Virus record (IMG/VR): IMGVR_UViG_3300043185_000079
Source: a virus
Strand: one strand, 5' to 3'
Length of the DNA stretch: 64,000 bases
The position numbers were made by a program, and so were the translations under genes. Numbering within the stretch: position 1 is the first letter of the stretch; the number at the start of each line of letters is the position of its first letter. Below are positions 48,024 to 64,000 of the stretch, in pieces. The notes beneath the pieces were generated by a model that was not told the DNA's origin, ran no database searches, and worked only from the letters and a program-made list of their open reading frames with translations.

Positions 48024-49916
48024 GTGGCCAAGGCGGCTGCCAACTTGGCCAGGATGGCCCTCAACGCGGGCCGCCTCCCTGAAGACGCCGGTCGACGCGA
48101 TGTTGTAGACAGCATCACCTTCGTCGAGTCCGAGTGGGGCCTGGGGATGCGGCTCTACCCGGTCCAGAGGGTCATCCTCAAGGCCCATTACGGGATTCCC
48201 CTGGACGATGACCCGGCGAACGCGTTCACGATCACGGACTGGCGCCGACAGAATCCCAAGGACTTCACCGAGGCCGGGTATCTCCGCTATCTGTACGAAC
48301 AGGGCCGGTCCAACATCCGTGAGGTCGTGCCGGGTGTCGAGAGACGTCAGCTCGTGCTTTCCATCGGCCGGCGATCTGGAAAAACCCTGATCGCGTCCTG
48401 CATTTCGGCCTACGAGACGTACAAGCTGATCAACCTTGGCAATCCACAGCGATATTTCGGTCTGAGCCCGTCATCGAACATTCAGCTCATCTCGATCGCC
48501 ACCGGCAAGGACCAGGCGGGACTGCTCTACTCCGAGGTGTCCGGACACTTCTCCAAGTGCAACTTCTTCCGGCGTTACACGGCGAACCATACGATGAGCT
48601 ATGCGCGCTTTCAGACCCCGCGCGACATCGAGGAGTTCGGGTCGTACGATGAGAATCCCAAGGCTCGGGCCAGTCTCAAGGTCACGTTCCACGCCTGCAA
48701 CGCCAAGGGGCTCCGCGGCGCCGGCAACATCGTCGTCATCCTCGACGAGGTTGCACACTTCGTCGAGCAGGGCGGATCCTCGGCCGAAGAGGTCTATCAG
48801 GCGGTGCACGCGTCGACCGGCACGTTCACGCCGAAGGACGACCTCGGTGAGCCGATCGACGGCGCGATGACAGAGTCCGAGGGACGGATGATTCTCATCT
48901 CGTCTCCACTGGGTAAGCAGGGACTGTTCTACAAGAAATTCCAGCAGGGGATGAGTGGCGGAGAATCGGCCGGGCACATGCTGTGCATCCAGGCTCCGAC
49001 ATGGGAAGTCAACCCGACAGTCTCCGCGAGCGTGTTCAAGGACGCCTACGCCGAGGACCCGAGGATCTTCTTCACGGAGTGGGGCGGGGAGTTCACGGAC
49101 CGTACTCTCGGATGGCTGGAGAACCCTGAGGATCTCCTCGCGTGCATTGACAAGGAACTACGCCCACGGACGCGCGGGCAACCACGACGCCAGTACTTCG
49201 TAGGCTTCGACCTCGGGCTCGTCAACGACGCGAGCGCGATCGCAATCACCCACATCGACGAGAACAACAGGATTGTTCTCGACTTCATCGGTCAGATGAT
49301 GGCGGGTGAAGGAGAGTACGCGGACAAGGAGCGACTGGAGTTCGATGATGTGGCGGCGTGGATCTACGGCCTATCGCGTCGGTTCCACTTCCACTCGGGA
49401 CTCTTTGACCAGTGGGGAGCGATCCCACTGGAACAGGCGCTCGCCAAGAAAGGCTTGACGCAGATCGAGGGAAAGTTGTTCTCGCCGCAGGAGAAGTCGC
49501 AGATTTGGCAGAACTTCAAGTCCATGATCTGGGACAAACGTCTCGTCCTCTTCGACATCACACCGGAAGAGAGGCAGAAGTATCTGTCCCGGGAGGAGAT
49601 TCCGCCGGACCACCTCGCGTACATCCAGCAGATGCTCGAGCTGCAGGCGACGTACAAGAGTCGGTACGTCGTCGAGGTCGAAGCGCCGCAGACGGATGGC
49701 AAGCACGACGACTTGGCGGACGCGCTCTCCAGGTCGGTATGGCTCGCGAGTCAGCAGATTGGGAAGCTCAAACACATCGCTCGCAGCGGCCTCAACACTC
49801 CAGCACACGTCGTGCGACCCCAGGTTTCGGCCGCGATTCGCCGGGCCAATCGCAGGCAGTCCCTCCTTGGAGGGTCCGATCCCAAGCGGCAGATCCAGAA
49901 ACGGAGGCGATGGTAG
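48024..49916 (+). CDS. terL: terminase large subunit
   Basis: GRRSGKT, VILDE, LISSP, and RNase H-like GFDLG...HDDLADA. Confidence 0.9.
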   Translation: MAKAAANLARMALNAGRLPEDAGRRDVVDSITFVESEWGLGMRLYPVQRVILKAHYGIPLDDDPANAFTITDWRRQNPKDFTEAGYLRYLYEQGRSNIREVVPGVERRQLVLSIGRRSGKTLIASCISAYETYKLINLGNPQRYFGLSPSSNIQLISIATGKDQAGLLYSEVSGHFSKCNFFRRYTANHTMSYARFQTPRDIEEFGSYDENPKARASLKVTFHACNAKGLRGAGNIVVILDEVAHFVEQGGSSAEEVYQAVHASTGTFTPKDDLGEPIDGAMTESEGRMILISSPLGKQGLFYKKFQQGMSGGESAGHMLCIQAPTWEVNPTVSASVFKDAYAEDPRIFFTEWGGEFTDRTLGWLENPEDLLACIDKELRPRTRGQPRRQYFVGFDLGLVNDASAIAITHIDENNRIVLDFIGQMMAGEGEYADKERLEFDDVAAWIYGLSRRFHFHSGLFDQWGAIPLEQALAKKGLTQIEGKLFSPQEKSQIWQNFKSMIWDKRLVLFDITPEERQKYLSREEIPPDHLAYIQQMLELQATYKSRYVVEVEAPQTDGKHDDLADALSRSVWLASQQIGKLKHIARSGLNTPAHVVRPQVSAAIRRANRRQSLLGGSDPKRQIQKRRRW

Positions 49917-50728: not shown

Positions 50729-52672
50729 ATGCCGGCTGAGGGCACGAAGAACGCCATCGCTGGGTCGGCAAGCCCCTCGTCTCTCAAGAAGAACGACGAC
50801 GAGGTCGTGGTGGGCACGGTCGAGCAGCGAAGAGGACGGCCCGAACGCGTGGGCGTGGACACCATGAGAACGGCATCGGCCGGGAACGCTCAGGTGGCCG
50901 AGGATAGTCGTCGAGGGGTTCAAGTTGGAAAACCTTCCCGTGTTGTCACGGGAACCATGCGTGGCCGGGCTGGTCCTCCCAGCTTCCGTGACAAGGTAGC
51001 GGCGGCATGTGGCCCTGGATCGGGGAGTTTCGGTGGCCTTGGCGGCGCTGGGGGCGTTGTCGGCGGGGGAGGAGGGAGCGGCGGGGGAGGAGGGTTCTCT
51101 GGCAACTTCGGACCGGGCAGTGTCGCGCAGGCCAGTTCGGGCAACTTCTACAGTCCCGAACTCAGCACGGACTTCCTGGAGCTTCCACAGTCTCTCAACG
51201 AACAGTGGAACTACTACAGGTTTTTCTACAACAACGAGCCGTTCGTCGGACAGGCTATCGATCTACACACGGAGCTGCCGCTGTCGAAGGTCCGGCTGGC
51301 TCGCCCGAGGGCTCAGACCCGCGAACTCGCCGATCAGGCTCTCCGGTTTTGCGAGAAGTGGATCAACCGGATCGGACTCCTGCAGCGGCTTATTGAGATT
51401 GTTCACGAGTACTACCTGATCGGCGAGGTGTTCATCTTCTGCGAGGACGCGAACCCGGACATGCCGCAGGAGGTCCGACAGAAGGTGGTGCGCGAGGTCA
51501 AGCCCGACGGCTCCCTGGTCGAGACATGGGTGGACTACGATGACGCCGACGCGCGAGCGGTGCGGTGGATGAAGAAGAACTACAGGGGCTGGACGGCCAT
51601 CCGCGTGCTGCCACCAGAGCAAGTCCACATCGAGACATTCCCCTTCACGAGCCAGGCTCTCATCGAGCTAATTCCTGACGCCAAGACGAGGCATGTCATT
51701 AACATGGCGGACCAGGGCGACGAAAGGGCCTGGCGCATTGTCGAATCCATGGACTCCGCCGTCGTGGATGCCGTGCGCGGTGGCGCGAACATCCCCCTGA
51801 GCACCGATCCGGACGGGGGCTCTTTTGTCCACTACATGGCGAACAAGAAGTCCCAGTATGAGCCCAGGGGCCACAGTATCCTGCAGCGATGTTTGAGGGT
51901 CTTGGTATTTTCTGACAAACTGAGACAGGCTCAGACTCAAATTGCTTCGCGGCACATGACCCCGATCCGTCTCGTCTACGCTGAGGACATGGACGAGACG
52001 GACACGGAGGCGCTGCGCGACCAGATTGATCTCGCCTTGCAGGACCCCGACTACTCGATCGTGACCAACTTCCAGGTCACGTGGGAGGAGATGAACAGTA
52101 ACGGCCGTTTGCTTGAGCTGTCCTCAGAGTACGACCTCATCAACCGCCAGCTCTACGCGGGTCTCGGCGTCACCGAGGCGCTCCTCAACGGCGAGTCGAG
52201 CTATTCCGGCGACCGCATCAACCTGGAAGTCATCAACACGAGGTACATGCTCCTCCGCGAGAACATCCAGAACCTCGTGGAGGAGAACTTCTTCAAGCCC
52301 ATGTGTCGACGCATGGGGTTCGTCGAGGAGGATGAGGACGGCAACCTGGAAGTCATCTACCCTCGCCTGTCCTTCACGCGGCTCGCTCTCCGGGACAACC
52401 AGGACACCTTCGACGCGCTGTTCCAGCTCTACCAGAAGGGCTCGCTGGACGTGGAGACCATCCTGGATCTACTGAACATCGACCCCGTGACCGTGCGCGA
52501 GCGCCTGGAGCGGGATTTTGCGACGTATAACGACGCGAACTTCAACGAGGTTCTTCGGTCGATGTACGGACGAGTCGGTGACCAGATCGTGGAGGGGTCG
52601 GACCTGGTGGAGAGGATCGCCAAGACCCTCGGGCTCGAGTACAAGAAGCCCGAGCAGGCTGGCCGTTTCTAG
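50729..52672 (+). CDS. portal protein
   Basis: Downstream of TerL; RFFY..EPFVGQAIDLH, EYYLIGEVF and RGHSILQRCLR patterns; Gly-rich N-terminal extension. Confidence 0.75.
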   Translation: MPAEGTKNAIAGSASPSSLKKNDDEVVVGTVEQRRGRPERVGVDTMRTASAGNAQVAEDSRRGVQVGKPSRVVTGTMRGRAGPPSFRDKVAAACGPGSGSFGGLGGAGGVVGGGGGSGGGGGFSGNFGPGSVAQASSGNFYSPELSTDFLELPQSLNEQWNYYRFFYNNEPFVGQAIDLHTELPLSKVRLARPRAQTRELADQALRFCEKWINRIGLLQRLIEIVHEYYLIGEVFIFCEDANPDMPQEVRQKVVREVKPDGSLVETWVDYDDADARAVRWMKKNYRGWTAIRVLPPEQVHIETFPFTSQALIELIPDAKTRHVINMADQGDERAWRIVESMDSAVVDAVRGGANIPLSTDPDGGSFVHYMANKKSQYEPRGHSILQRCLRVLVFSDKLRQAQTQIASRHMTPIRLVYAEDMDETDTEALRDQIDLALQDPDYSIVTNFQVTWEEMNSNGRLLELSSEYDLINRQLYAGLGVTEALLNGESSYSGDRINLEVINTRYMLLRENIQNLVEENFFKPMCRRMGFVEEDEDGNLEVIYPRLSFTRLALRDNQDTFDALFQLYQKGSLDVETILDLLNIDPVTVRERLERDFATYNDANFNEVLRSMYGRVGDQIVEGSDLVERIAKTLGLEYKKPEQAGRF

Positions 52673-52694: not shown

Positions 52695-52714
52695 CCGATA
52701 CCGTGGGAGAGACC

Positions 52715-54784
52715 ATGGTGCTCCCATCGATCGATCTCCCGACTCGCGAGAGTATCGGACATCCTGCGGACACCCCGGCCAGGGTCGGAATTCTCGTCCA
52801 CATGGCTCGACCCTCCAGGCGCCGCGAGTACAGCATGTCTCGGTGCATGGGGGAGGGTTGCAAGCGGTCCCCTGAGATCGAGTGCATCTGGGCCGACGGT
52901 CGTGGCCGCGCCTGGTTCTGTGAGCGACACTTCGACGCCTGGGCTGCGAAAGACACGGACGGAGGACTCCCGAAGGCTATCGTCAAGCAGCGCAGGGTTC
53001 CTGACGGTGTGGTGGGCGAAAAGTACGGCGAGTATCCCGAAGCCAAGACGGCTGCGGGGGCCCAGTTCATCGTCGTGTCCGCGAAGGGCCCTGGACAGTG
53101 GCCTACCGACCCCGTCCAAGTCATGTCCCGGGAAAGGGCCCTCGACTACCAGTCCGCGGGTGTCGTGATAGCCGGGTTTCGCACGGAGCGCGAGGCTGAG
53201 GAATTCGCAGACAAGATGCGTGACGCTGCTATCGACGTGACGGCGCCCGACGGGACGATCGTGTTCTCCGGGCGTCTCCTCGACTTCTCCGATCTGGCTC
53301 CGCGCCTCGGACTCAGGTTCGTCGACCGAGGGCGGCTTTTGCAGATCCTGCACCGTCCCACGACGGTGATCGGATCCGGCAGGCGCCAGATGACGGTCAC
53401 GCGCCGCGCGGGCAAGACCGCCAAGGCCACCGGATGCAAGACAGGCGACGGTCACAGCGTTGGGCTGTTCATCCCGCTCCCGCGAGATTTGGCCAAGAAG
53501 TTCCCTTCGCTGGGCGAGAATGACGACTCACCCTCCCATGTGACATTCCTGTACATCGGAGATTTCAAGGGAAAACGGAAGCAGGAGCGGCTCGTCGCCG
53601 TCCTACGAAGCTGCTTGCGTCGTTGGTGGCCCTCCTGTCGGGCGACACTCGGAGACTTGGCCTACTTCGATCACCACGACAAGGATCGCCGCGTGCCTCA
53701 CGTCCAGGTCGACTTCGACAAGGACATGAGTGGATTCAAGCACCGGCTGCGACAGGAACTTCACGAGGCCGGCATTGATGTTGGCGACACGTTCCCCGAG
53801 TACAAGCCCCACGTCACACTCGCTTACATGCCGGGCATGGATAGCGAGTGGGAAGGCCCTGTTCCGAAGGGGTCGTGGGACTTCGACACAGTCGAGATCT
53901 GGGGACTTCCGGAGGTCCACAAGATCAAGCTGGGGCCGTCGATTCACAAGATCTCGGAGGAGTGGGTTCTCCAAGTGATTGCTCGTCGTGTCGCGATGAA
54001 GCATTATGCTGCCGGTTGGCCGGACCGCGGCAGAGTAGCATCGGTATCCGTGAACGCGACGCACAGGCGCAACGTCACCCTCGTCAAGTGGCTATCCGAC
54101 TTGGCGCAACATCTCGGCGTCGCAAGGGACACGTACGTCGTGGGTGGGGCCGTGCGAAATTTCATCCTCGGCGAGCCCATCAAGGACGTGGATGTCGTCA
54201 TCGACACCATCAAGGCCGGCAGGGATTCTGAATGGCTGGCGCAGCAGGTGGCCAAGGCGATCCCGGTCCCGACCAACGTGACAACGAACCAGTACGGAGT
54301 GGCCATTCTCACCGTCAAGGGCGACTGGGTCCTCGACGACGAGAACCTCCGCGGCGAGATCATCGAAATCGCCAACGCGCGCAAGGAGAGCTACGGAGGC
54401 GAGACGGGCAAGGGTTATAAGCCGCACATGGTAGAGCCCGCCACCATCGAGGAGGACCTCAGGCGAAGGGATTTCACGGTTAATACGCTGATGTGGAGGT
54501 TGCTCGACTTGGCACACGGACCCGACCGGGCCGAGGTCGTCGATCTGATGGGATGTGGTCGGCGAGATCTTGAGCAGCGAATACTTCGATGCCCGCAGGA
54601 TCCAGATATCACTTTTTCGGATGATCCGACAAGGATGCTACGTCTGGTGCGGTTCATGTCCAGATACAACATGAAAGTATCTCCCGACGTAGCGGCAGCA
54701 GTGCGTCGCAACGCGCCCAAGCTCAAGAATGCTCCTTGGGAGGCCATCGCTTCGGTCCTGATGCAGACTCTGGAGGGACGGTAG
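52715..54784 (+). CDS. polyprotein: Cys module, 2H phosphoesterase and CCA-adding/poly(A) polymerase head
   Basis: 2H motifs SHVTF and PHVTL; NTase motifs VGGAVRN, KDVDV, DLRRRDFTVN and DDPTRMLR. Confidence 0.85.
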   Translation: MVLPSIDLPTRESIGHPADTPARVGILVHMARPSRRREYSMSRCMGEGCKRSPEIECIWADGRGRAWFCERHFDAWAAKDTDGGLPKAIVKQRRVPDGVVGEKYGEYPEAKTAAGAQFIVVSAKGPGQWPTDPVQVMSRERALDYQSAGVVIAGFRTEREAEEFADKMRDAAIDVTAPDGTIVFSGRLLDFSDLAPRLGLRFVDRGRLLQILHRPTTVIGSGRRQMTVTRRAGKTAKATGCKTGDGHSVGLFIPLPRDLAKKFPSLGENDDSPSHVTFLYIGDFKGKRKQERLVAVLRSCLRRWWPSCRATLGDLAYFDHHDKDRRVPHVQVDFDKDMSGFKHRLRQELHEAGIDVGDTFPEYKPHVTLAYMPGMDSEWEGPVPKGSWDFDTVEIWGLPEVHKIKLGPSIHKISEEWVLQVIARRVAMKHYAAGWPDRGRVASVSVNATHRRNVTLVKWLSDLAQHLGVARDTYVVGGAVRNFILGEPIKDVDVVIDTIKAGRDSEWLAQQVAKAIPVPTNVTTNQYGVAILTVKGDWVLDDENLRGEIIEIANARKESYGGETGKGYKPHMVEPATIEEDLRRRDFTVNTLMWRLLDLAHGPDRAEVVDLMGCGRRDLEQRILRCPQDPDITFSDDPTRMLRLVRFMSRYNMKVSPDVAAAVRRNAPKLKNAPWEAIASVLMQTLEGR

Positions 54785-54837
54785 GCGTGGCGGGCAATTT
54801 CGCGAGATTCAATGAGATGTTCGGCTGCAGAGTCTAT

Positions 54838-55276
54838 GGCTGACCCAAGGAAAGCACTCAAGGAGATGAAGGCACTGGGTCTGCTGGACGTGGTGTCTGA
54901 GATGATCCGGGAACAGAAGCCGTTCGCTACCTACATGGCCAACCAGCTCAGAGCCGACAGGCGCGTCCAGCTCCTTCTCGACATGATGGACCTTGGCGTC
55001 CCGGCCAGTATGCCCCTGTCCTTCCTCGACGCGGCCGGACGACAGCGCCTGCGCGAGCTGACCGTATCGATGTCTGAGGACGAGGCGTCGAGGCTCGTCG
55101 ATCTCCTGATTAAGCCGCCCGTGGACAGCATGCGCGTCATCACAGAGCTTGCCCTGGAGGGGCCGGCGCGGGCCGGGATCCTGCCCGCAGCCAGGCAGCT
55201 GATTCTCGCGCACCCGTGGCTGGCTAACGATTCCCGCCGGCTGACGGAGGAGGTGATCCGGCAGTGGACCAAATGA
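54838..55276 (+). CDS. probable detached C-terminal part of the CCA/poly(A) polymerase-like protein
   Basis: Same frame as the upstream gene; RKALKEMKALGLL matches the helix that follows the head/neck in this family. Confidence 0.55.
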
Positions 55277-55425
55277 TCACCCGTGTCGCCGCCCGACATG
55301 CCGTGCTCCGTTCGGCAACGGGTTACTTCCGCGAGGGCGAGGACATCCTGTTCGATCGCTACAACAAGGCCGGAAGAGGAACCGGACGATGGGCCTCTTC
55401 AACATCTGGAAGTTGTCTGAGGTGA
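55273..55425 (+). pseudogene. short RVA-motif ORF; probable frameshifted N-terminus of the 55389 protein
   Basis: ATGA-coupled start MITRVAARHAVLRSATGYF...; overlaps the 55389 frame, which is open upstream of its ATG. Confidence 0.5.
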
Positions 55426-58400
55426 GAGGCCTGCCTCCAAAAACCGGACGTGGAGTCGCGTTTCATGGTACGCGGTCGAAGAATCTCGATCACCTGCGGC
55501 GTTATGGGCTCGTGCCTGGAGCACGCAGTGCGTACACGGACGCCTATAGTAAGTACGACGACGGGCGTCATCTGTTCTTCACAGACAATGAGGACTTGGC
55601 GCGCCATTACGGAGACCTGATTCTGCGATTCCCTTGGCCAAGCGAAGCCAAGCCTGATGTTAACGAATTCGGACGCTATCTTCCTGGACAGTTCGTCTCC
55701 TTGCGGAAAATCCCGCCAGACGAGATCGATGTTTTGCGTGAGGGTACTTGGGAACCTCTCGTTGGAGGCTTGTCGAAGCAGGCCTGCATCATCGTCGGCA
55801 AGGACTTCGACGGCCACCTCTGTCTCCTCAAGAACCGGGATCGGTCGTACGACGTCAAGCTCCAGATCATGCACATGGAGTTCAACGGCGTCGAGATGGC
55901 GTTCGTACTCGATCTCGAGACCGGCTACCTGGAAGGGGTCAACGAGCACGGGATCGGCGTTGTCAACACGACGCTCATGGTGCTTCATGATGAGGCAGAA
56001 GGGCACTCGACCAAAACCAAGGGCAAGACGACGCTCAAGTCGAAGGATGGCCCGAAGATCTTCCACGCCCTCATACAGGACAATCTCCAAGACGCGGTCG
56101 ATGTTCTCGTGAGTTTCCGGGGAGGGATCCGCGGCCACACGTTCGTGGCCGACGGACAGACGCTGCTCAGTATTGAGTGCACTCGAAAGAACCCGGCCCG
56201 GGTACATCATCTCGATCCGGGGAGGGTCAACACGAGGACCAACCATGGCGTCTCATATCCCGAGGCTGGGTACACGCGCGGCGAGGACTATGTCTCGTCC
56301 ATCGTCCGTCGATGGGAGGCGCAGAAGCGGATTCAAGGGGTGAAGCGGCCAGAGGCCGCTGCTCCGGCCCTCGCAACGCTGATCGACGAGGCCGACAGCC
56401 CGTTCAATCCTGTCCGAGTGACTGACAAGATGCGGACGACGAGCCAGCTCCTCATCGATACGAGCACTCCGTCTCTCTACCTCTACCTTATTCCAGGTCA
56501 CGCGCGCGTCACCAAGATTCTCAATCTCCTTCCCGGAGGCAGAGCACCGAAGATTCCCGTCCGGGTGTTTCGCTACCGCAAGCGGATGGAAGACCGAGAC
56601 TTTGAGGACGACGGCCATGAGATGAAGGATGAAGTGGCAGATCCAGGAGGTGACTTGCTGGAGAAACGAACTGCTCGCTATAAGGACAAGAAGACGGTCA
56701 AGACCAAAGACGGCGACGAGCGAGTCATCTACGAGTACGGCCCGCGACAGGTCCTCAACCGCAACAAGGCCAAGGCGGAGCGTATCGAGAATCTGCGCAA
56801 GCAGATGTCGGCTCTCCGTCGGAAGGTCAAGAAGGACCTGGAGTCGTCCGACGACCAGAAACGCGCTGTTGCTCTCGCCGTCGCGCTGATGGACGAAACC
56901 TATGAGCGGCCCGGCAACGAAGCCAGTGCCAGCGAGGGTCACTACGGCGTGACGACGTGGCAGAACCGGCACGTCAAGTTCCGCAACGGAAAGGCCACGA
57001 TCACATACGTCGGGAAGTCTGGAGTCGAGCACAAGAAGGTCGTCGAGACACCGGCAGTCGTGAAGGCTCTCAAGATGCTCTGCAAGGGCCGAGGGAAGGA
57101 TGATCGCCTCATCGACGTCGAGGCGGCTGACGTCAACGAGTTCCTACGCTCGTTCGAGATTACGGCCAAGGACATCCGAGGGTTCCACGCGAACCGCGAG
57201 ATGAAGGACCGTCTCAAGAGGATCCGCCGTGAGGGGCCGGATCTCCCGCGGCCCCTCAAAGATCGAGACAAGATCCTGAAAGAGGAGTTCAAGCAGGCGC
57301 TGGCCGAAACCGCTGAGGCCGTAGGCCATACCGAATCCACGCTGCGCAGCCAGTACCTCGTCCCCGGGCTCGAGGACGAGTACATGAAGGACGGCACCGT
57401 CAGCGACAGCCACGTGAAGTCCGGGGGGGCGGCCCTTCTAGGCGCTCCTGGGGTCCAGGAGCGCCCAGAAGGCGCGCTGAGGGTCGCCGCCACCCGAGGC
57501 ACACCGACGGAGCGGAGGATCCTGGCGAACGCCCTGCTTGCCCCGGTGCTCGTAGTGCGCGATCGCCGCTGGTGGCTCGACGAGGCGCCGTCCCTCTACC
57601 GCCTGGCCCGTGACCACGAGCGGCCTAGACCTGTCATCGACGGTCTCCGGTTCGACCCCGACCTGTTCGCGATGCTCTGGTACGAGGACGAGGACGGGAA
57701 CAGGTTGCCCGAACCGCCCATTGGGGACCTCGCAATTCCGGAGGACTCCCATACACAGCATTCGAGGTTCCCCAACGTGCTGCGGCACACCATCCTGTTG
57801 CTTAATGACGACGGGACGTCGTCGAGCCTCGCGGCTGGGGAAAGTTCCTTTCCCTCTGATCTCGTGACGCAGATGGTTCGCAGCGGCGACTGGGACACCG
57901 CAGACGCAATCATGGTTGCCGGCCAGGCCTGCGAGCGATGCCTCAACGTCCTGCTCCACCATTACGGGATCGGGGATGGCTACCCGTTCGGGTCCGAGGA
58001 CTATTGGCGGGCGAACACAGTCTGTTCGATGTGCGAGGACATCGGCCGTCGAATGGCGACGAAGTCTCCCGCCGAGAAGGAGGATGAGAACGTCGAGAAG
58101 ATGCTACGGCCGGAACCGAAGAAGAAGCCTCCGCGCTACGACCTCCGCAACAACAGAACGCTGGAGGACCGGGACGAGGACCTGGAGGGTATGGGCGCAG
58201 GAGATCGTGGGGATCGAGACTTGAGTCTCAAGTGGAACAAGGTCGCTCATCGGGTGGCGTTCCGGTGGCTGGCCGTTCCCCTCGCGCCCGCTCCTCTGCG
58301 TGTGGCAATGCGGCGCATCGCCAGGCAGTTCCCCTCCGAGTTCCAGGACGAGGTGGCACACCAGCGGTTCACGCATCCAGAGACGCGCAACTCAGTCGGG

Positions 58401-60425
58401 TTTGGGTCGTTGCCTAGCGAGGAGCAGTCGAAGATCTACAAGCGGTGGAAAAGCAAGGCGCGGGAAGACAAGGCTCCACCAGAGGATGCCGAGAAATCCG
58501 AGAAAGGCAAGGAGGATGACGTCGAGCGTGAACTCGACGAGGCACGCGATCGGGTCGATTCTCTGGAGGATAAGGTTGATAAGGCCAAGGACCAGATCAA
58601 GGAATCGCGCGAAAACATCAAGGGGATCAAGAATCTGCTAGAGAAGGCTGGCGAGACGGCCCGAGGACAGCTCGAAGGAAAGCTGCGCGAGGAGGTCTCC
58701 AAGATGCGGAAGGCCGAGGACGCGCTGGAGGAAGTCACCGACGAATTGGAGGCGGCGCGCAAGCGTGTCGATCAGCTCAAGGCGGAGCGTAAGGCTCCCA
58801 CGAGCCGCGAAGACAAACGACGCGAGGATGAAGAGAAGCGCCGCAAGGAACGTGCCGAGGAGACTCTGGACGAGGTGCGCGATGCGGTGCGGGGGATGGT
58901 GTCGAAGGACTCCGACATCCCCGAGGACGTTCGGGCACAGATTGAGACCGCCTTCGCCAACTTGAGCGAGGAGCAAGTAGAGGATTTTTCCGAGGCATTC
59001 CAGAAGTCGTTGGGGAAGCTCGTCAGAACGGACGCTTCGTCCGAGGAGGCTGCGAACCTGGCCAACGCCTCGGTCCGCGCCGATCTGAGTGAGATTGAGG
59101 ATCCCGCAGAGCTGGCACGCACAGTTGCCGAAGTCGCGTACGCACGCAACGTGGTGACCAATCCTCTCGTCGTGGGTGGGAAGCCGCTCGGACAGACGAA
59201 GATGGACGATGCTGGCTACTCCGGTCGTGCTATGGAATCGTTCCGTCAGTTTCAGCGTCTCAGCCCTGCTCTCCGCGAGAGTGCGGCGGAAAAGATCGCG
59301 GAAGAGCTTCGCGGTCTCGACGAGGACTCCGATAAGGCACAAGAGCTACAGGCGATTCTCACAGGCATCAACACGGCTCATATCGCGGACACAGGCCACG
59401 CTTTGCCGGGTCGACCGCAGCCGAACAAAGGTGCCGCGGCTCTCATCCGTCGCATGGTGGAGAACGGTCAAGCCGAGACGATGTTCAAGCCGGTCGAGGA
59501 CTTCTTCGCCGACGACAGCCGCGCCGCGATGCAAAAGGCGCTCTCGGAAATGGACGACGCGGAGGTTGCTGACTTCGTGATCGGAGACGACGGGGATCAC
59601 CCATTCGGTAAGCTCCGCGAGGCCATGCAGGAGAAGGGCGCCAGTGAGTACAAGCAGCTCATCAAGGACTTCCTGATCCAAGATTTCATGAGTGACATCT
59701 GGGGTGATCGGGCCGTACGCGATTACATGGAGTCCGCTGGTTTCGCCGACTTCGATAATCCGGAGGCCAGGGCGCAGTTGCTTCGGGACACGAGGTACGC
59801 AACTGCACCCGAGGCAGACATGCAGGCGATCGCCAGGGCGCAGGCGGCGATCGCGGCCGGTCAGAAACCTGATCCAGAGGATGAGGAGCGTGCTCGAAAT
59901 TTCCTCGATCCAGAGACGGGGGGCGGGATCCGTGGGAAACTCCGCAAGCTCATGGAGATCTTGCAATCCAAGGTCAAGAAGCGTGTTGTCACCCCCGCGA
60001 CCGCGGTGATCAACCACTTCCTGGAGACGGGCGAGGCCGAGGTCCTCCACCAGGAGACCCTTCCACATCCTGACGAGGGCCGGGGCGGGGACACGGAGGC
60101 CAAGGAAGACGAGGGACACGGGTTGGGCGACGTGTGGAAAACTGACGAGGGGAACTGGCGCGCCAAGAATCTCGACGGAGTGCCCAAGACTTTCGATACG
60201 CGAGAGAAGGCCCAAGCATACGCCAAGGGCGGCAAGGACCGCAGGAAGCCATCGCGCGGCAGCGAGGCCCCTGGCGAGGAATTCTCGGCCGAGTTCACCG
60301 TGCCCGTCGAAGAACGAGGACCGACGAGGTTTGCCAACCATGTCGCGAACGCTTGGCTGGCCCAAGTGCGCAAATGCCACCCAGACGATCCGGGGCGTCC
60401 GCGAGTGGTTTTTGATACGGCTTGA
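55389..60425 (+). CDS. 1678-aa polyprotein: ART-like domain, Ntn-hydrolase, DNA topoisomerase IB, unknown and coiled-coil modules
   Basis: FHGT...GLVP...FFT...IPP; C-IIV...KNRD...EGVNEHG; topo IB residues ERPGN, GKSG, KDIR and GHT...QY. Confidence 0.8.
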   Translation: MGLFNIWKLSEVRGLPPKTGRGVAFHGTRSKNLDHLRRYGLVPGARSAYTDAYSKYDDGRHLFFTDNEDLARHYGDLILRFPWPSEAKPDVNEFGRYLPGQFVSLRKIPPDEIDVLREGTWEPLVGGLSKQACIIVGKDFDGHLCLLKNRDRSYDVKLQIMHMEFNGVEMAFVLDLETGYLEGVNEHGIGVVNTTLMVLHDEAEGHSTKTKGKTTLKSKDGPKIFHALIQDNLQDAVDVLVSFRGGIRGHTFVADGQTLLSIECTRKNPARVHHLDPGRVNTRTNHGVSYPEAGYTRGEDYVSSIVRRWEAQKRIQGVKRPEAAAPALATLIDEADSPFNPVRVTDKMRTTSQLLIDTSTPSLYLYLIPGHARVTKILNLLPGGRAPKIPVRVFRYRKRMEDRDFEDDGHEMKDEVADPGGDLLEKRTARYKDKKTVKTKDGDERVIYEYGPRQVLNRNKAKAERIENLRKQMSALRRKVKKDLESSDDQKRAVALAVALMDETYERPGNEASASEGHYGVTTWQNRHVKFRNGKATITYVGKSGVEHKKVVETPAVVKALKMLCKGRGKDDRLIDVEAADVNEFLRSFEITAKDIRGFHANREMKDRLKRIRREGPDLPRPLKDRDKILKEEFKQALAETAEAVGHTESTLRSQYLVPGLEDEYMKDGTVSDSHVKSGGAALLGAPGVQERPEGALRVAATRGTPTERRILANALLAPVLVVRDRRWWLDEAPSLYRLARDHERPRPVIDGLRFDPDLFAMLWYEDEDGNRLPEPPIGDLAIPEDSHTQHSRFPNVLRHTILLLNDDGTSSSLAAGESSFPSDLVTQMVRSGDWDTADAIMVAGQACERCLNVLLHHYGIGDGYPFGSEDYWRANTVCSMCEDIGRRMATKSPAEKEDENVEKMLRPEPKKKPPRYDLRNNRTLEDRDEDLEGMGAGDRGDRDLSLKWNKVAHRVAFRWLAVPLAPAPLRVAMRRIARQFPSEFQDEVAHQRFTHPETRNSVGFGSLPSEEQSKIYKRWKSKAREDKAPPEDAEKSEKGKEDDVERELDEARDRVDSLEDKVDKAKDQIKESRENIKGIKNLLEKAGETARGQLEGKLREEVSKMRKAEDALEEVTDELEAARKRVDQLKAERKAPTSREDKRREDEEKRRKERAEETLDEVRDAVRGMVSKDSDIPEDVRAQIETAFANLSEEQVEDFSEAFQKSLGKLVRTDASSEEAANLANASVRADLSEIEDPAELARTVAEVAYARNVVTNPLVVGGKPLGQTKMDDAGYSGRAMESFRQFQRLSPALRESAAEKIAEELRGLDEDSDKAQELQAILTGINTAHIADTGHALPGRPQPNKGAAALIRRMVENGQAETMFKPVEDFFADDSRAAMQKALSEMDDAEVADFVIGDDGDHPFGKLREAMQEKGASEYKQLIKDFLIQDFMSDIWGDRAVRDYMESAGFADFDNPEARAQLLRDTRYATAPEADMQAIARAQAAIAAGQKPDPEDEERARNFLDPETGGGIRGKLRKLMEILQSKVKKRVVTPATAVINHFLETGEAEVLHQETLPHPDEGRGGDTEAKEDEGHGLGDVWKTDEGNWRAKNLDGVPKTFDTREKAQAYAKGGKDRRKPSRGSEAPGEEFSAEFTVPVEERGPTRFANHVANAWLAQVRKCHPDDPGRPRVVFDTA

Positions 60426-60647
60426 GGGAGGGCAAACGTCCCTCGCGACGCTGTAAACCGATTTCTTGTCCTGTCTCGGGGGGTTTTCAATCCCTTCAAA
60501 GGCCGTCAGCGAGGAATCAGCACGCGGTTGCGGTAGGCCATCGATCCCAAAGGGGTGGTGAAGGTGGGTTTGTGTTCCTCGCGGAGGGCATTGAGATCTC
60601 GTGGGGATCTCGGGGGTGTTTTTCAGACCCGAAAACCCACGTTAGGT

Positions 60648-60662
60648 CGGTTTTCCCCTTAT
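60648..60662 (+). promoter_or_regulatory. candidate late promoter motif CGGTTTTCCCCTTAT
   Basis: Consensus match upstream of the operon that includes the protease. Confidence 0.7.
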
Positions 60663-60740
60663 ATGGGGCGCGAATAAGCGAAGGGCTCTGCCCTCCCGTC
60701 CCGAGGACGTTGAAGCCCGCCCGCCAGGAGAACCAATCCA

Positions 60741-61217
60741 ATGTCATCCAAACCGATCACGAAGGAAGCGGCCCTCAAGGTGTCCCGCCTCCTGGACCAA
60801 GCAGCCACCACGTTCCAGAAGCACCACGTTGCTCTCGGGATCAAGCCGAAGATCGCGAATGACTTCGCACTTCGGTGTGACATCCTCTCCGACCACGTGG
60901 AGAAGCAGGCGGGCATCGACCGTCGCGCGCAGATGGATCCCAAGGAAAACTACACCGAGGATGCTCTGGGCCCGGATGACTTCGACCCAGCCGAGATCGG
61001 CGAGCAGACTCCCGGCGCGCTGCTGCGGAACGAGGACGAGCCCTACATGGACACGTTCAACCAGCAGTGGTTCGATCAGCTTCGCGAAGTTCAACAGACG
61101 GGTCAGTTCTCCAACGCGAAGACCGCCGCGCAGCTCATCAAGCACATGGCCGGCCTCCTCCACGCTCACGGCATCCCTCTCGTCGTCCGCAGGAAGAAGA
61201 GCCCGAAGGTCGCCTGA
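60741..61217 (+). CDS. putative head protein
   Basis: AGGAG RBS; KEAA, KQAG, RRAQ and KTAA. Confidence 0.65.
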   Translation: MSSKPITKEAALKVSRLLDQAATTFQKHHVALGIKPKIANDFALRCDILSDHVEKQAGIDRRAQMDPKENYTEDALGPDDFDPAEIGEQTPGALLRNEDEPYMDTFNQQWFDQLREVQQTGQFSNAKTAAQLIKHMAGLLHAHGIPLVVRRKKSPKVA

Positions 61218-61274: not shown

Positions 61275-61904
61275 ATGAAACGTACAGCAGACGCAGGAAA
61301 CTGGCAGGCCCGCGGACAAGAGTTCGCGGTGGGGCAAGCTGTGCGTCTCGTCAATGGCAGCCCAACCGACGAGGGTCGCGTCACCGCTGTCTGGCCTGGA
61401 ATCGGATGCGTCGATGTGCAGTGGCCACACACGTCGTATCGCCACTTGGTTGAGGATCTCCAGATTGTCAACCCGGGCGAGGACGAGTTCGTCGCGCCCA
61501 TGCACGAGGACGTGCCGGGAGGGCCCCCGTCCTCGGCGTGGGTCTCGCAAGGGGCCCCTCAGACGAACGAGATCACGCACGAGGACCCACGAGTCGAGTT
61601 CGTCCACGACATCGCGGGCAAAGTGGCATCTCAACCGTCTGCGCAGCGGGTGGCGATCGCGTTCGTGAAGCATTCTCTTTACTGGCACGCTCGGGACCGG
61701 AAGTACCGCGTCAGCCGGGACGAACACGCAGAGGGCCGGTATAGATGCCCCACCCGTGGGTGCGAACAGATGTTGCGCCGTGCAACCTACAAGATGGAGA
61801 ACGGATCTCCGATCAAGCTGCTCGCCTGCGGCTCGTGCTTGTTCATGATCCGCGAGCATGACGTACTCTCTGACCACTGCACTCCACATGAGGAGACCTG
61901 CTAG
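61275..61904 (+). CDS. putative head protein with Zn-ribbon
   Basis: KRTA, KVAS and QRVAIAF; CPTRGC...CGSC. Confidence 0.65.
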   Translation: MKRTADAGNWQARGQEFAVGQAVRLVNGSPTDEGRVTAVWPGIGCVDVQWPHTSYRHLVEDLQIVNPGEDEFVAPMHEDVPGGPPSSAWVSQGAPQTNEITHEDPRVEFVHDIAGKVASQPSAQRVAIAFVKHSLYWHARDRKYRVSRDEHAEGRYRCPTRGCEQMLRRATYKMENGSPIKLLACGSCLFMIREHDVLSDHCTPHEETC

Positions 61905-61905
61905 C

Positions 61906-64000
61906 GTGGCGTTCCTCAAGCGAGCCAGCGGGGTCGTCGTTCATCGGGGGTGGTCTCCAGAGAACTGGGGCAACTTCGTCGGCCAGAACAAGGAGCGACT
62001 CGCGAATGGGCCGTACCGAACGGCCGCCGGGGCGCTGAACTTGGTCGCGCAGGCGAGCGAGATCCTCGGCGAAGAGTTCGATCCGAAGAACTTCCTCCTG
62101 ACGCACGCGACGATCGTGGCCTCGGTCGACACGGAGGAGGCCGGGAACGTCAAGCTCGGGTCCGTCGTCGAGGACGGACGCAAGATCCTGCGCAAGTTTG
62201 GCGACTACAGGATCACGCCCGACACCGAGCAGTGGATCAACAACAACCACGACAGCTGGTCTCGCGGGGTCCTGCTCAAGAGCTACCGGACGTTCGTCGG
62301 TGCCCACAACTTCCTCGAGCACTGCCAGCTCGAGCACCTGTCGAAGGGTCGAATCGTCGACGCCGTCGCCCGCGACATCGGACCGTCGATCTACGTCGAC
62401 ATCCTCGTCGCCACCAACCGCAAGCACGCGAGCCTCATCCAGGACATCGAGAACGGCCGGATGGGCACGCTGTCCATGGGGTGCACTTGCGTGCACACGA
62501 CCTGCACGAAGTGCGGGAACGTGGGCCATGATGAGACTGAGCTTTGCTTCCCTCCCGGCACTCGTGTACTGCTTGCCGAAGGCAAGTACCGTCCCATTGA
62601 GGAGATCGTCGAAGGCGATTTCGTGCTCTCTCACACGGGTAGGCGTCGTGCTGTTGTTAGGACCATGCGCCGTGAGTACGAGGGCAACTTGGTGGTCCTC
62701 GACGTAGAGGGCGTTCCGGTCTCGGTGAAGGCAACGCCCAAGCATCCGTTTTGGACGCTGCGACCAGCACAGATCTGTGCTTGCGGCTGCGGTCAACCCC
62801 TTCGACGGACCGTCGAGCACGAACGGGGATCCGCCAAGGCATTCAAGCGTCGATTTTTGCCACACCATGCCGGCTCTCTACACAACGTAGTATCGATGGA
62901 CGCGTACCAGCGCATCTTCGATACCGAGATGGAGTTCGTCGAGGCACAGGATCTCCGTCGAGGAGATTACTTGGCCTTCCCGATTCCGCGCGACGTCGAG
63001 AACAGCGCGGATGCCACAGTCAACCGGGCTCGTTTGATCGGGTTCTTTCTGGCCGAAGGCAGTTTCATTAAGCGAGACGGCAGGAGGGTCGGCATCGCCT
63101 TTTCGTTTGGGTACCACGAGTACGACACCCTTGCGGCCGAGGTCCAGAGGCTTCTGAACCTTGAGTTTGGACGAGACGAGCGTCGGCAAGATTGTCTTGA
63201 CTGGCAGGATTTGGTTGCTCGCAATCACACGCGGGCAATCAAAAGGCGCGCCAACAGCCGCGCCGTCCCTCCAGAGGTGACGTGTCCGACATGTGCTGCG
63301 CCCTCGCAGTACGCCTACAATGCCCGTTTCAAGGCGGGGCACGACGACTGTTATCAGTGCAAGGTATGTGGGCGCTCGTGGATCCACCAAGCGGACAGAT
63401 CCCTTCACGCCACACGATACAAGTGTCCGATTGACAGACCTGAGACTGGGTCCGTCGAAGTCCGGCTCATGGACGAAGAGGCGGCGGATTTTTTCTACAG
63501 CTACTGCGGCGAATACGCGAACGAGAAGGCGCTGGATCCATCGGTCCTGCGTTGGGCTCCTGATGTCCAGAGACACGTTTTGTTCGGGTGGCTCGGAGGA
63601 GATGGGACCCAGAGTGTGGTTGGTATCCGAGGCAACACGGCTTCCTTCCATCTCCAGAATCAGATGCACATTCTCGCCGCGCGGTGCGGTCTGTATGCCT
63701 ACAGAACGGTCGTGTTCGACGGGAGATCAGGGACCATCGATCAAGTGGTGAACGGTGACGGCTCTGTCACGGCGCGAGATTGCAGAGGCTGGCTTCCGAG
63801 CTTTGGTCTCGTGCTATCTGAGCCGAAGGGGTTCAATGGCGAGGTCCGGTTTTCCGATCGGGAGCCGCGGACCACCCTCACCGAGATGACAGATAGTTAC
63901 AAGCGCGTTGGGGACTGGTTCGTCTATCGGATCCGAGATGTTGGCCGCGAGTCGTACTGCGGAACGGTCCACAATCTGGAAATCTCTGAAGACAACTCCT
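61906..64000 (+). CDS. prohead (capsid maturation) protease, intein-containing; 3'-truncated and absent from the ORF track
   Basis: AGGAG RBS and GTG. Hand translation is open to the window end: INNNHDSW...FLEH...GRIVDA...LSMGC...CTKCGN. Confidence 0.75.
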   Translation, partial: MAFLKRASGVVVHRGWSPENWGNFVGQNKERLANGPYRTAAGALNLVAQASEILGEEFDPKNFLLTHATIVASVDTEEAGNVKLGSVVEDGRKILRKFGDYRITPDTEQWINNNHDSWSRGVLLKSYRTFVGAHNFLEHCQLEHLSKGRIVDAVARDIGPSIYVDILVATNRKHASLIQDIENGRMGTLSMGCTCVHTTCTKCGNVGHDETELCFPPGTRVLLAEGKYRPIEEIVEGDFVLSHTGRRRAVVRTMRREYEGNLVVLDVEGVPVSVKATPKHPFWTLRPAQICACGCGQPLRRTVEHERGSAKAFKRRFLPHHAGSLHNVVSMDAYQRIFDTEMEFVEAQDLRRGDYLAFPIPRDVENSADATVNRARLIGFFLAEGSFIKRDGRRVGIAFSFGYHEYDTLAAEVQRLLNLEFGRDERRQDCLDWQDLVARNHTRAIKRRANSRAVPPEVTCPTCAAPSQYAYNARFKAGHDDCYQCKVCGRSWIHQADRSLHATRYKCPIDRPETGSVEVRLMDEEAADFFYSYCGEYANEKALDPSVLRWAPDVQRHVLFGWLGGDGTQSVVGIRGNTASFHLQNQMHILAARCGLYAYRTVVFDGRSGTIDQVVNGDGSVTARDCRGWLPSFGLVLSEPKGFNGEVRFSDREPRTTLTEMTDSYKRVGDWFVYRIRDVGRESYCGTVHNLEISEDNS
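62545..64000 (+). mobile_element. intein with LAGLIDADG-type endonuclease in the protease (end lies beyond the window)
   Basis: CFPPGTRV, ATPKHPF, LIGFFLAEG, FGWLGGDG and VHNLEISEDNS. Confidence 0.88.

Follow-up and report, generated by a model that had tools for sequence, protein, structure and literature searches.

The giant gene and its modules

The virus record IMGVR_UViG_3300043185_000079 of IMG/VR was analysed over a stretch of 64,000 nucleotides (nt), called here the window, with a G+C content of about 62% throughout and nearly all coding on the plus strand. Its subject of interest is a giant open reading frame (ORF) at 55389..60425 (plus strand) encoding a protein of 1678 amino acids (aa), P0001, which is considered here as possible enzyme cargo of the phage head. 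Coordinates and length are exactly those given in a preliminary description made from the letters alone, and the identical protein is also called on a 69-kb Logan contig. The start ATG of the gene is preceded by GGAAGAGGAA, which resembles a Shine-Dalgarno (SD) sequence. The following features were recognised in the gene and at its 5' edge.

55389..60425, plus strand: giant gene, 1678 aa
55455..55766, plus strand: ADP-ribosyltransferase (ART)-fold module, aa 23-126 (AlphaFold model, fold searches, phmmer family)
55782..55787, plus strand: Ala132-Cys133, predicted bond of N-terminal nucleophile (Ntn) autoprocessing, with the Cys codon at 55785
55785..56600, plus strand: C45-type Ntn-hydrolase module, aa 133-404 (profile and homologue alignment)
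56673..57437, plus strand: type IB topoisomerase (topo IB) module, aa 429-683 (Pfam, phmmer against PDB, homologue alignment)
57465..58046, plus strand: Cys-rich module (CxxC ... CxxC), aa 693-886
58050..58274, plus strand: most conserved linear motif of the family, aa 888-962 (basic KKKPPRYDLR, acidic run, KWNKVAHRVAFRW)
58476..58838, plus strand: coiled-coil region, about aa 1030-1150 (weak coiled-coil-type matches to SMC, keratin and XhlA; long helix in the model)
58806..60422, plus strand: conserved C-terminal region, aa 1140-1678 (helical domain, then a small strand/helix tail ending in conserved RFANHVANAWLAQVR)
55273..55425, plus strand: out-of-frame 50-codon remnant of an ancestral N-terminus (M-I-T-RVAARH...), deletion junction near 55367/55368

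The topo IB module is matched by Pfam PF01028 over aa 457-651 (E 7e-27, 94.7 bits against a cut-off of 23.7), and phmmer against solved structures retrieves the topo IB 6z01 (E 3e-11) and the vaccinia enzyme 2h7f (E 8.5e-10). In the phmmer alignment R507, K543, R597, H647 and Y656 fall on the vaccinia motifs FIRFG, VGK, KDLR, GHT and AYM, which we take to hold R130, K167, R223, H265 and Y274 of that enzyme. The pentad, noticed in the preliminary description as an R, K, R, H, Y set, is complete and invariant in 28 full-length homologues. About 25 residues precede the catalytic domain, and of the poxvirus-type N-terminal domain the last hairpin alone is present; its Y448 and Y450, both invariant, align to the Y-x-Y hairpin of vaccinia. 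Topoisomerases of this family need neither ATP nor Mg.

The segment before it, aa 133-404, is, judging from its profile matches and conserved residues, probably a divergent C45-type Ntn-hydrolase, in which form the Ntn-hydrolase domain announced in the preliminary description was recovered. The NCBIfam model C45_proenzyme (NF040521) matches aa 140-339 (E 1.3e-8, profile positions 100-287 of 313) and also four homologues (E 1.8e-12 to 9.5e-9), and Pfam AAT (PF03417) rises above its threshold only in homologue P0033 (30.5 versus 23.2 bits). A PDB sequence search with the C45 segment gave only chance antibody matches. Among the residues of the module that are invariant in the 28 homologues are C133, R150, D151, N285 and R307, and the residue before Cys133 (P1) is always Ala or Gly. 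The module is 36% identical to a 274-aa stand-alone protein of Chryseobacterium phages. Five homologues start just 5 residues before the Ntn cysteine, several homologues showing the pattern M-x-x-x-A-C, and because of this the module appears to be a C45 domain without an alpha-subunit, with the Ala132-Cys133 bond as a module border. The idea that aa 1-132 represent the alpha-subunit of a C45 proenzyme was rejected for the same reason and because the segment folds as an ART domain.

Profile searches with aa 1-132 gave no Pfam, PHROG or PADLOC family match (E cut-offs of 10 for Pfam and 1 for PADLOC; PHROG at 0.001 on the whole protein). Exhaustive phmmer searching nevertheless collected 67 clusters of this module, comprising stand-alone proteins of 100-160 aa and parts of larger proteins, so that on its sequence distribution it is a real mobile domain. 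Its conserved positions, in the numbering of the query, are [YF]25 (F in the query), H26, T28, G40, L41, P43, R80, F81, P84 and W121. An AlphaFold (AF2) model built with the family alignment as input reached a predicted local distance difference test score (pLDDT) of 84.9 and a predicted template modelling score (pTM) of 0.76. With this model Foldseek placed Tpt1/KptA enzymes at ranks 1-13 (the top ranks with probability 1.0), followed by PARPs and pertussis toxin, and an exhaustive structural aligner (VIA) also ranked KptA highest (Z 9.9, rmsd 2.4, 82 residues). Of the 50 rows listed by VIA, nearly all are folds of the ART superfamily, among them TreX (Z 8.2), pertussis toxin (7.3), DarT and PARPs. 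A profile of the domain matches KptA by sequence as well (E 7.5e-5), through the common YHGT...GLxP motif. The model thus confidently suggests an ART fold at aa 23-126 nearest to the NAD+ lobe of Tpt1/KptA. Since two independent fold searches agree on the class, the term ART-like used in the preliminary description is right at the level of fold, although no curated profile matches. H26 is present in at least 90% of the ART-like sequences, with an aromatic residue on the next core strand, and R80 is invariant; no Glu is invariant in the family alignment, where Glu or Asp at position 86 (E86 here) is common, not universal. Arg46, which lies at the position of the presumably catalytic Arg in the GLxPMxR stretch of KptA, was considered as an equivalent of that residue and dismissed, as it is not conserved in the domain family. 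With the ART-like, Ntn-hydrolase and topo IB modules all found, the tandem of three unrelated enzyme domains described earlier is upheld.

The remaining chain consists of the Cys-rich module, the linear motif, the coiled coil and the C-terminal region. The Cys-rich module is missing from some homologues and also exists in stand-alone forms of 146-372 aa (P0109-P0118) without family assignment; judging from this distribution it is another mobile module. It gave no Pfam, PADLOC or ESM Atlas match; PADLOC had no match for any segment of the protein, and ESM Atlas feature searches with aa 690-890 and 1150-1678 found nothing. The linear motif has R907, P910, K913-R916, D918-R920, R923, D939 and D942 invariant in the 28-homologue alignment and terminates in an RVA-x-R-W helix. 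Shorter topo IB proteins carry the same basic/acidic cassette 46 aa beyond their active-site Tyr: PPRxDLR, an acidic run and DLSLNYKKVA stand at that distance in 15 of 120 shorter proteins of the topo IB clade. The C-terminal region is conserved even among distant homologues, and its 539 aa were modelled by AF2 with a pLDDT of 81.8 and a pTM of 0.74.

Relatives, module exchange and origin of this copy

Domain identities, catalytic residues, the conserved gene position and the shuffling of modules are what the analysis shows. Forty full-length metagenomic homologues of 1100-2600 aa, several on contigs of 200-600 kb, keep an invariant core made of the topo IB, the basic/acidic linear motif and the helical C-terminal region. 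In pairwise mapping the backbone comprises the C45 module (in most homologues), the topo IB, the linear motif and the C-terminal region, while the N-termini vary, and insertions of 67-316 aa are placed exactly at the linkers 404/429, 684/693 and 886/888. Variable modules of the homologues include GGACT/AIG2, NUDIX, GNAT, DUF5661, PolyA_pol, cREC_REC and LigD_N (LigD 3'-phosphoesterase). The comparison of domain order in related phages, proposed in the preliminary description, therefore shows a fixed core around which other enzyme modules are swapped at linkers. The topo IB clade is large: among shorter proteins a search gave 457 matches, made up of solo proteins of 270-360 aa and fusions to GNAT, 2H, cREC, GGACT, PAP2 and Ham1-type domains. 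The ART-like module travels in similar company: it occurs with Phage_Mu_F and topo IB in P0048, with NUDIX and topo IB in P0051 and with GNAT in P0062. The Phage_Mu_F (MuF) match in P0048 has an E of 1e-8, and this link, which concerns a distant relative, is the sole direct connection with a domain known to be incorporated into heads.

The copy in the window has a distinct history at its N-terminus. The closest relative, P0003 (81% identity across the C45-topo IB part), begins with the ancestral N-terminus of the family, an RVAARxL motif and a small domain ending ...KGRKQNKT-MG-F-N-W...RGLP..K-x-A/C (the slash marks the predicted cleavage bond). The DNA alignment with this relative (L009) reveals a 76-nt deletion in the window, inside the ancestral N-terminal small domain; this frame-breaking change may be genuine or may stem from a fault in the assembly. 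The ancestral start codon at 55273 overlaps the stop of the upstream gene (ATGA) and now opens the 50-codon remnant ORF listed above, and the present protein begins at a conserved internal Met behind the SD-like sequence. Compared with P0003, the ART module has been cleanly inserted between RGLPxK and KQA/C.

Genomic setting

The giant gene lies in the head module of the genome, and its neighbours in the window are as follows.

48024-49916: large terminase (PHROG E 1e-22)
50729-52672: portal (PHROG E 3e-34)
52703-54784: 2H phosphoesterase and CCA/poly(A)-type nucleotidyltransferase (profile matches)
54812-55276: small ORF
60741-61217 and 61275-61904: two small ORFs
from 61858: head-protease-like gene split by an intein (profile matches)

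From the positions of the portal and the protease-like gene it follows that the gene was correctly placed between portal and protease at the outset. Another assembly of the same contig continues beyond the protease with genes of 477 aa and 221 aa and then a capsid-like gene of 292 aa. The order of large terminase, portal, 2H esterase, giant protein, three small genes, protease and major capsid protein (MCP) is kept in three other contigs, so that the head-module position is conserved in four contigs, one of them of 230-235 kb.

Such strict embedding between terminase/portal and protease/MCP, found in every relative examined, would also suit an enzyme of the assembly phase, in which the topo IB sits at the portal and relieves the twist made by the terminase motor during packaging while the other modules act in the producing cell. 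A cofactor-free topo IB suits DNA under torsion. However, the explanation leaves the fused counter-defence-type enzymes (NUDIX, GNAT, 2H, ART-like) and the MuF fusion of P0048 unaccounted for, and the known packaging motors run without a topoisomerase; we consider it quite unlikely. Enzyme cargo of the head, as the favoured interpretation of the giant protein, is taken up again below.

Several observations concern the neighbouring genes themselves. The gene at 52703-54784 encodes a 693-aa protein directly after the portal; its 2H part gives weak LigT and Acb1-like matches, and it carries RRVAMKHY at aa 429. Its relatives are 212-1006 aa long, or have the nucleotidyltransferase fused to the giant topo IB protein (P0035, P0038). 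The 2H-CCA gene probably belongs to the same kit as the giant protein. The protease-like gene (61858-64000 in the window, 2695-6144 in L001) is interrupted by an intein composed of Hint and LAGLIDADG; its counterparts in relatives attain 926-1414 aa. One relative has a LAGLIDADG insert in the portal as well, and LAGLIDADG genes after the MCP.

The gap of about 320 nt on the 3' side of the giant gene (60425-60741) is retained in three divergent phages. It contains a hairpin immediately 3' of the stop codon and, at 60651-60665, about 75 nt upstream of the next gene, an invariant TTTTCCnCTTATA element whose exact form occurs once in the window. The TTTTCCnCTTATA element is probably a phage promoter; a sigma-70 promoter scan around the giant gene found nothing.

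Junction motifs and the question of processing

The modules had been described as bordered by KQA and KRTA, with further ones after LRVAA, RRMA and RRIA, which would suggest a cleavage code of the [KR]-x-A type. The protein contains 22 such sites versus 25.7 +/- 4.3 in residue shuffles, so the count is not above chance and carries no signal; six of the sites (aa 130, 427, 698, 888, 955 and 971) are position-conserved among homologues. A narrower motif, RV[AVLSI][AS]x[HWYF], stands out: of the 120 listed proteins of the topo IB clade (P0119-P0238), 75 contain it, where shuffles give 1.4 +/- 1.1. Usually it stands at the start of the topo IB module (RVAARYKSKKKV), and in solo proteins it is often found at the end; the typical opening RVAA[RK]YKSKKKV has degenerated in the window to RTARYKDKK. 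In the window [RK]VAxx[WFHY] occurs 7 times versus 1.6 +/- 1.4 expected, with a maximum of 9 in 300 shuffles. In three related contigs the RVA motif was found on the 2H/CCA enzymes and a small neighbour and not on the MCP, the scaffold-sized gene or the portal. Taken together, its distribution looks more like that of an address or joint motif of cargo modules than of a general maturation site, and it could be both.

The borders invite the explanation that the chain is a polyprotein which the prohead protease cuts after [KR]-x-A at every domain border, KQA/C included, so that separate enzymes are freed in the capsid. In its favour, T4 and phiKZ-like phages are known to process their head cargo, a gene for a head protease is found 1.4 kb downstream, and the six sites keep their positions even beside inserted modules. 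Against this, [KR]-x-A is not enriched in the protein, and the first site is the canonical self-processing bond of an Ntn enzyme, which by sequence explains the KQA junction better than prohead protease does. Moreover, the RVA motif is missing from those three head proteins of the relatives where a maturation site would be expected, and in solo topo IB proteins it stands a few residues from the ends, where a cut would release nothing. The explanation is unlikely in our estimation.

Proposed function

It can be said, with somewhat better than even confidence, that the 1678-aa protein is modular enzyme cargo of the phage head, a topo IB-centred variant of the so-called polyvalent proteins, which cleaves itself at Ala132-Cys133. 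Packaging, self-cleavage, delivery and all substrates are elements that we infer. The conserved core (topo IB, linear motif and helical C-terminal region) would carry the protein into the prohead and would supply ATP- and Mg-independent relaxation of DNA, in the capsid or on the entering genome, as the poxvirus virion topo IB does. The Ntn module would cut its own Ala132-Cys133 bond, by which an N-terminal ART fragment of 14.8 kDa would be freed and Cys133 would become the N-terminal residue and catalytic nucleophile. The variable modules, plugged in at linkers, are predicted to act on NAD+, nucleotide or RNA targets of the host; here they are the mini ADP-ribosyltransferase fold of Tpt1/KptA type, the C45 Ntn-hydrolase and the Cys-rich domain. 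The earlier notion of a toolkit in the head module is partly supported: it fits the position kept in three more contigs, the modules shuffled at linkers and the MuF fusion of P0048.

A number of results weigh against this interpretation. In the 1678-aa protein itself no MuF, portal or other known head-incorporation domain was found with Pfam and PHROG, including MuF / SPP1 gp7 (PF04233), for which P0001 has no match. The C-terminal model matches no known fold (Foldseek E at least 0.34 in PDB and at least 0.65 in BFVD; best Z of 6.7 in the VIA-wide search, which for an all-helical model is noise level). The NF040521 score of 34.6 bits lies below the curated cut-off of 85. As the ART-like module has no clearly conserved catalytic Glu and no Pfam ART family match, it may bind NAD+ or a nucleotide without transferring anything. 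The 76-nt deletion has destroyed the ancestral N-terminus together with its RVA motif, and therefore the N-terminal motif is not essential here. Finally, the distant topo IB of the Pseudomonas jumbo phage PaBG (gp84; L005 56209-57897), encoded three genes upstream of the MCP and beside a SprT-like protease gene, is an ordinary protein of 562 aa that was not reported among the 14 identified virion proteins of that phage.

The last point would equally be expected if the giant protein were an ordinary late enzyme of the cytoplasm, serving DNA topology or RNA/nucleotide metabolism, neither packaged nor processed, with its place in the head operon being incidental; the distant topo IB genes of PaBG, Motura and Xanthomonas phages are indeed annotated simply as topoisomerases. 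Such an enzyme is hard to reconcile with the strictly conserved head-module synteny, with more than 700 conserved residues that are non-enzymatic and include a coiled coil, and with address-like motifs common to the protein and the neighbouring enzymes, and we regard it as very unlikely. With regard to the head cargo interpretation, PaBG gp84 might offer a way to test virion association in a phage that can be cultured.

A wider generalisation is tentative and in our opinion rather doubtful. According to it, huge uncultured phages generally load their capsids by means of modules flanked by a short RVA-x-x-aromatic address helix on a topo IB hub, with an Ntn self-cutter freeing the upstream cargo and the topo IB acting in the capsid or at ejection. 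In the literature searched, neither a general capsid-loading system with a topo IB hub nor the Ntn self-cutter was found described for phages. If true, it would represent a phage counterpart of the poxvirus virion enzyme. Irrespective of generality, packaging of the protein would matter for how phages pack and eject very long genomes and for the first transcription of these, and the family would be a natural catalogue of NAD+-, nucleotide- and RNA-end-directed modules delivered by huge phages on entry. Two of its elements, a candidate short address motif and a putative self-cleaving module, could potentially be reused for loading foreign proteins into capsids.

Comparison with known systems

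The C45 acyltransferases/hydrolases (acyl-CoA:6-APA acyltransferase family; NF040521, PF03417) share with the module described here the beta-subunit profile match and a Cys placed after a small residue. An Asp follows the Cys at a distance of 18 residues, which we take to be the case in the fungal C45 enzyme as well. In contrast to those enzymes, the phage module has no alpha-subunit or propeptide domain, scores below the curated cut-off, and its cleavage would also detach an upstream module.

The NAD+ lobe of Tpt1/KptA (9ld3, 8tg4, 7yw2) is the best structural match to aa 23-126 and has the YHGT...GLxP motif in common with it. Unlike Tpt1, the phage module lacks the whole RNA-binding lobe, in which three of the four catalytic residues lie, and has Phe or another aromatic residue where the Tpt1 motif has its second His. 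Being mobile and only about 105 aa long, the module is not a Tpt1. Tpt1/KptA enzymes act on phosphates of nucleic acids, not on proteins.

The analogy with T4 Alt suggested in the preliminary description survives as functional logic only, that of an ART-fold enzyme carried in the head and injected; no homology was detected to Alt in Pfam or PHROGs, nor to any Pfam ART family. Alt is loaded via an N-terminal targeting peptide cut by gp21. It is presumably an ART of the R-S-E type, and the module of the giant protein has the H-aromatic pattern nearest to Tpt1.

Polyvalent proteins, together with effectors fused to MuF or portal, have been predicted to be packaged (Iyer, Burroughs, Anand, de Souza, Aravind 2017, PMC5512222). 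The giant protein resembles them in combining within a single chain at least two effector-type enzyme domains of unrelated kinds (ART fold, C45 and topo IB, with the Cys-rich module), in the location of the gene in the portal-terminase module, in the shuffling of domains between relatives, in the themes of NAD+, nucleotides and RNA ends, and in the predicted delivery with DNA. It differs in that topo IB and the C45 Ntn-hydrolase are not among the modules in PMC5512222, that the hallmark domains (MuF, MPTase and others) are not detectable in it, and that the topo IB, linear motif and helical tail form a fixed core with variation only around it.

Literature searches yielded no description of a topo IB-centred head protein, and searches for a phage virion topo IB or a capsid Ntn-hydrolase returned nothing relevant. 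A survey of jumbo phages described a phage-specific topoisomerase I of tyrosine-recombinase type in phiRSL1, Lu11, PaBG and Motura, and PMC7247149 mentions second-hand that a DNA topoisomerase was reported among the virion proteins of a Ralstonia jumbo phage.

Vaccinia Top1 (PDB 2h7f) and the phage module have the fold, the catalytic pentad and about 225 aligned residues in common, and as a type both are cofactor-independent enzymes of viruses. Nevertheless, their identity is low, and the phage enzyme retains the last N-terminal hairpin alone and is embedded in a chain of 1678 aa. Vaccinia topo IB is packaged in the particle, whereas for the phage protein packaging is predicted; if the prediction holds, a cofactor-free topoisomerase would be a particle component of tailed phages as well as of poxviruses.

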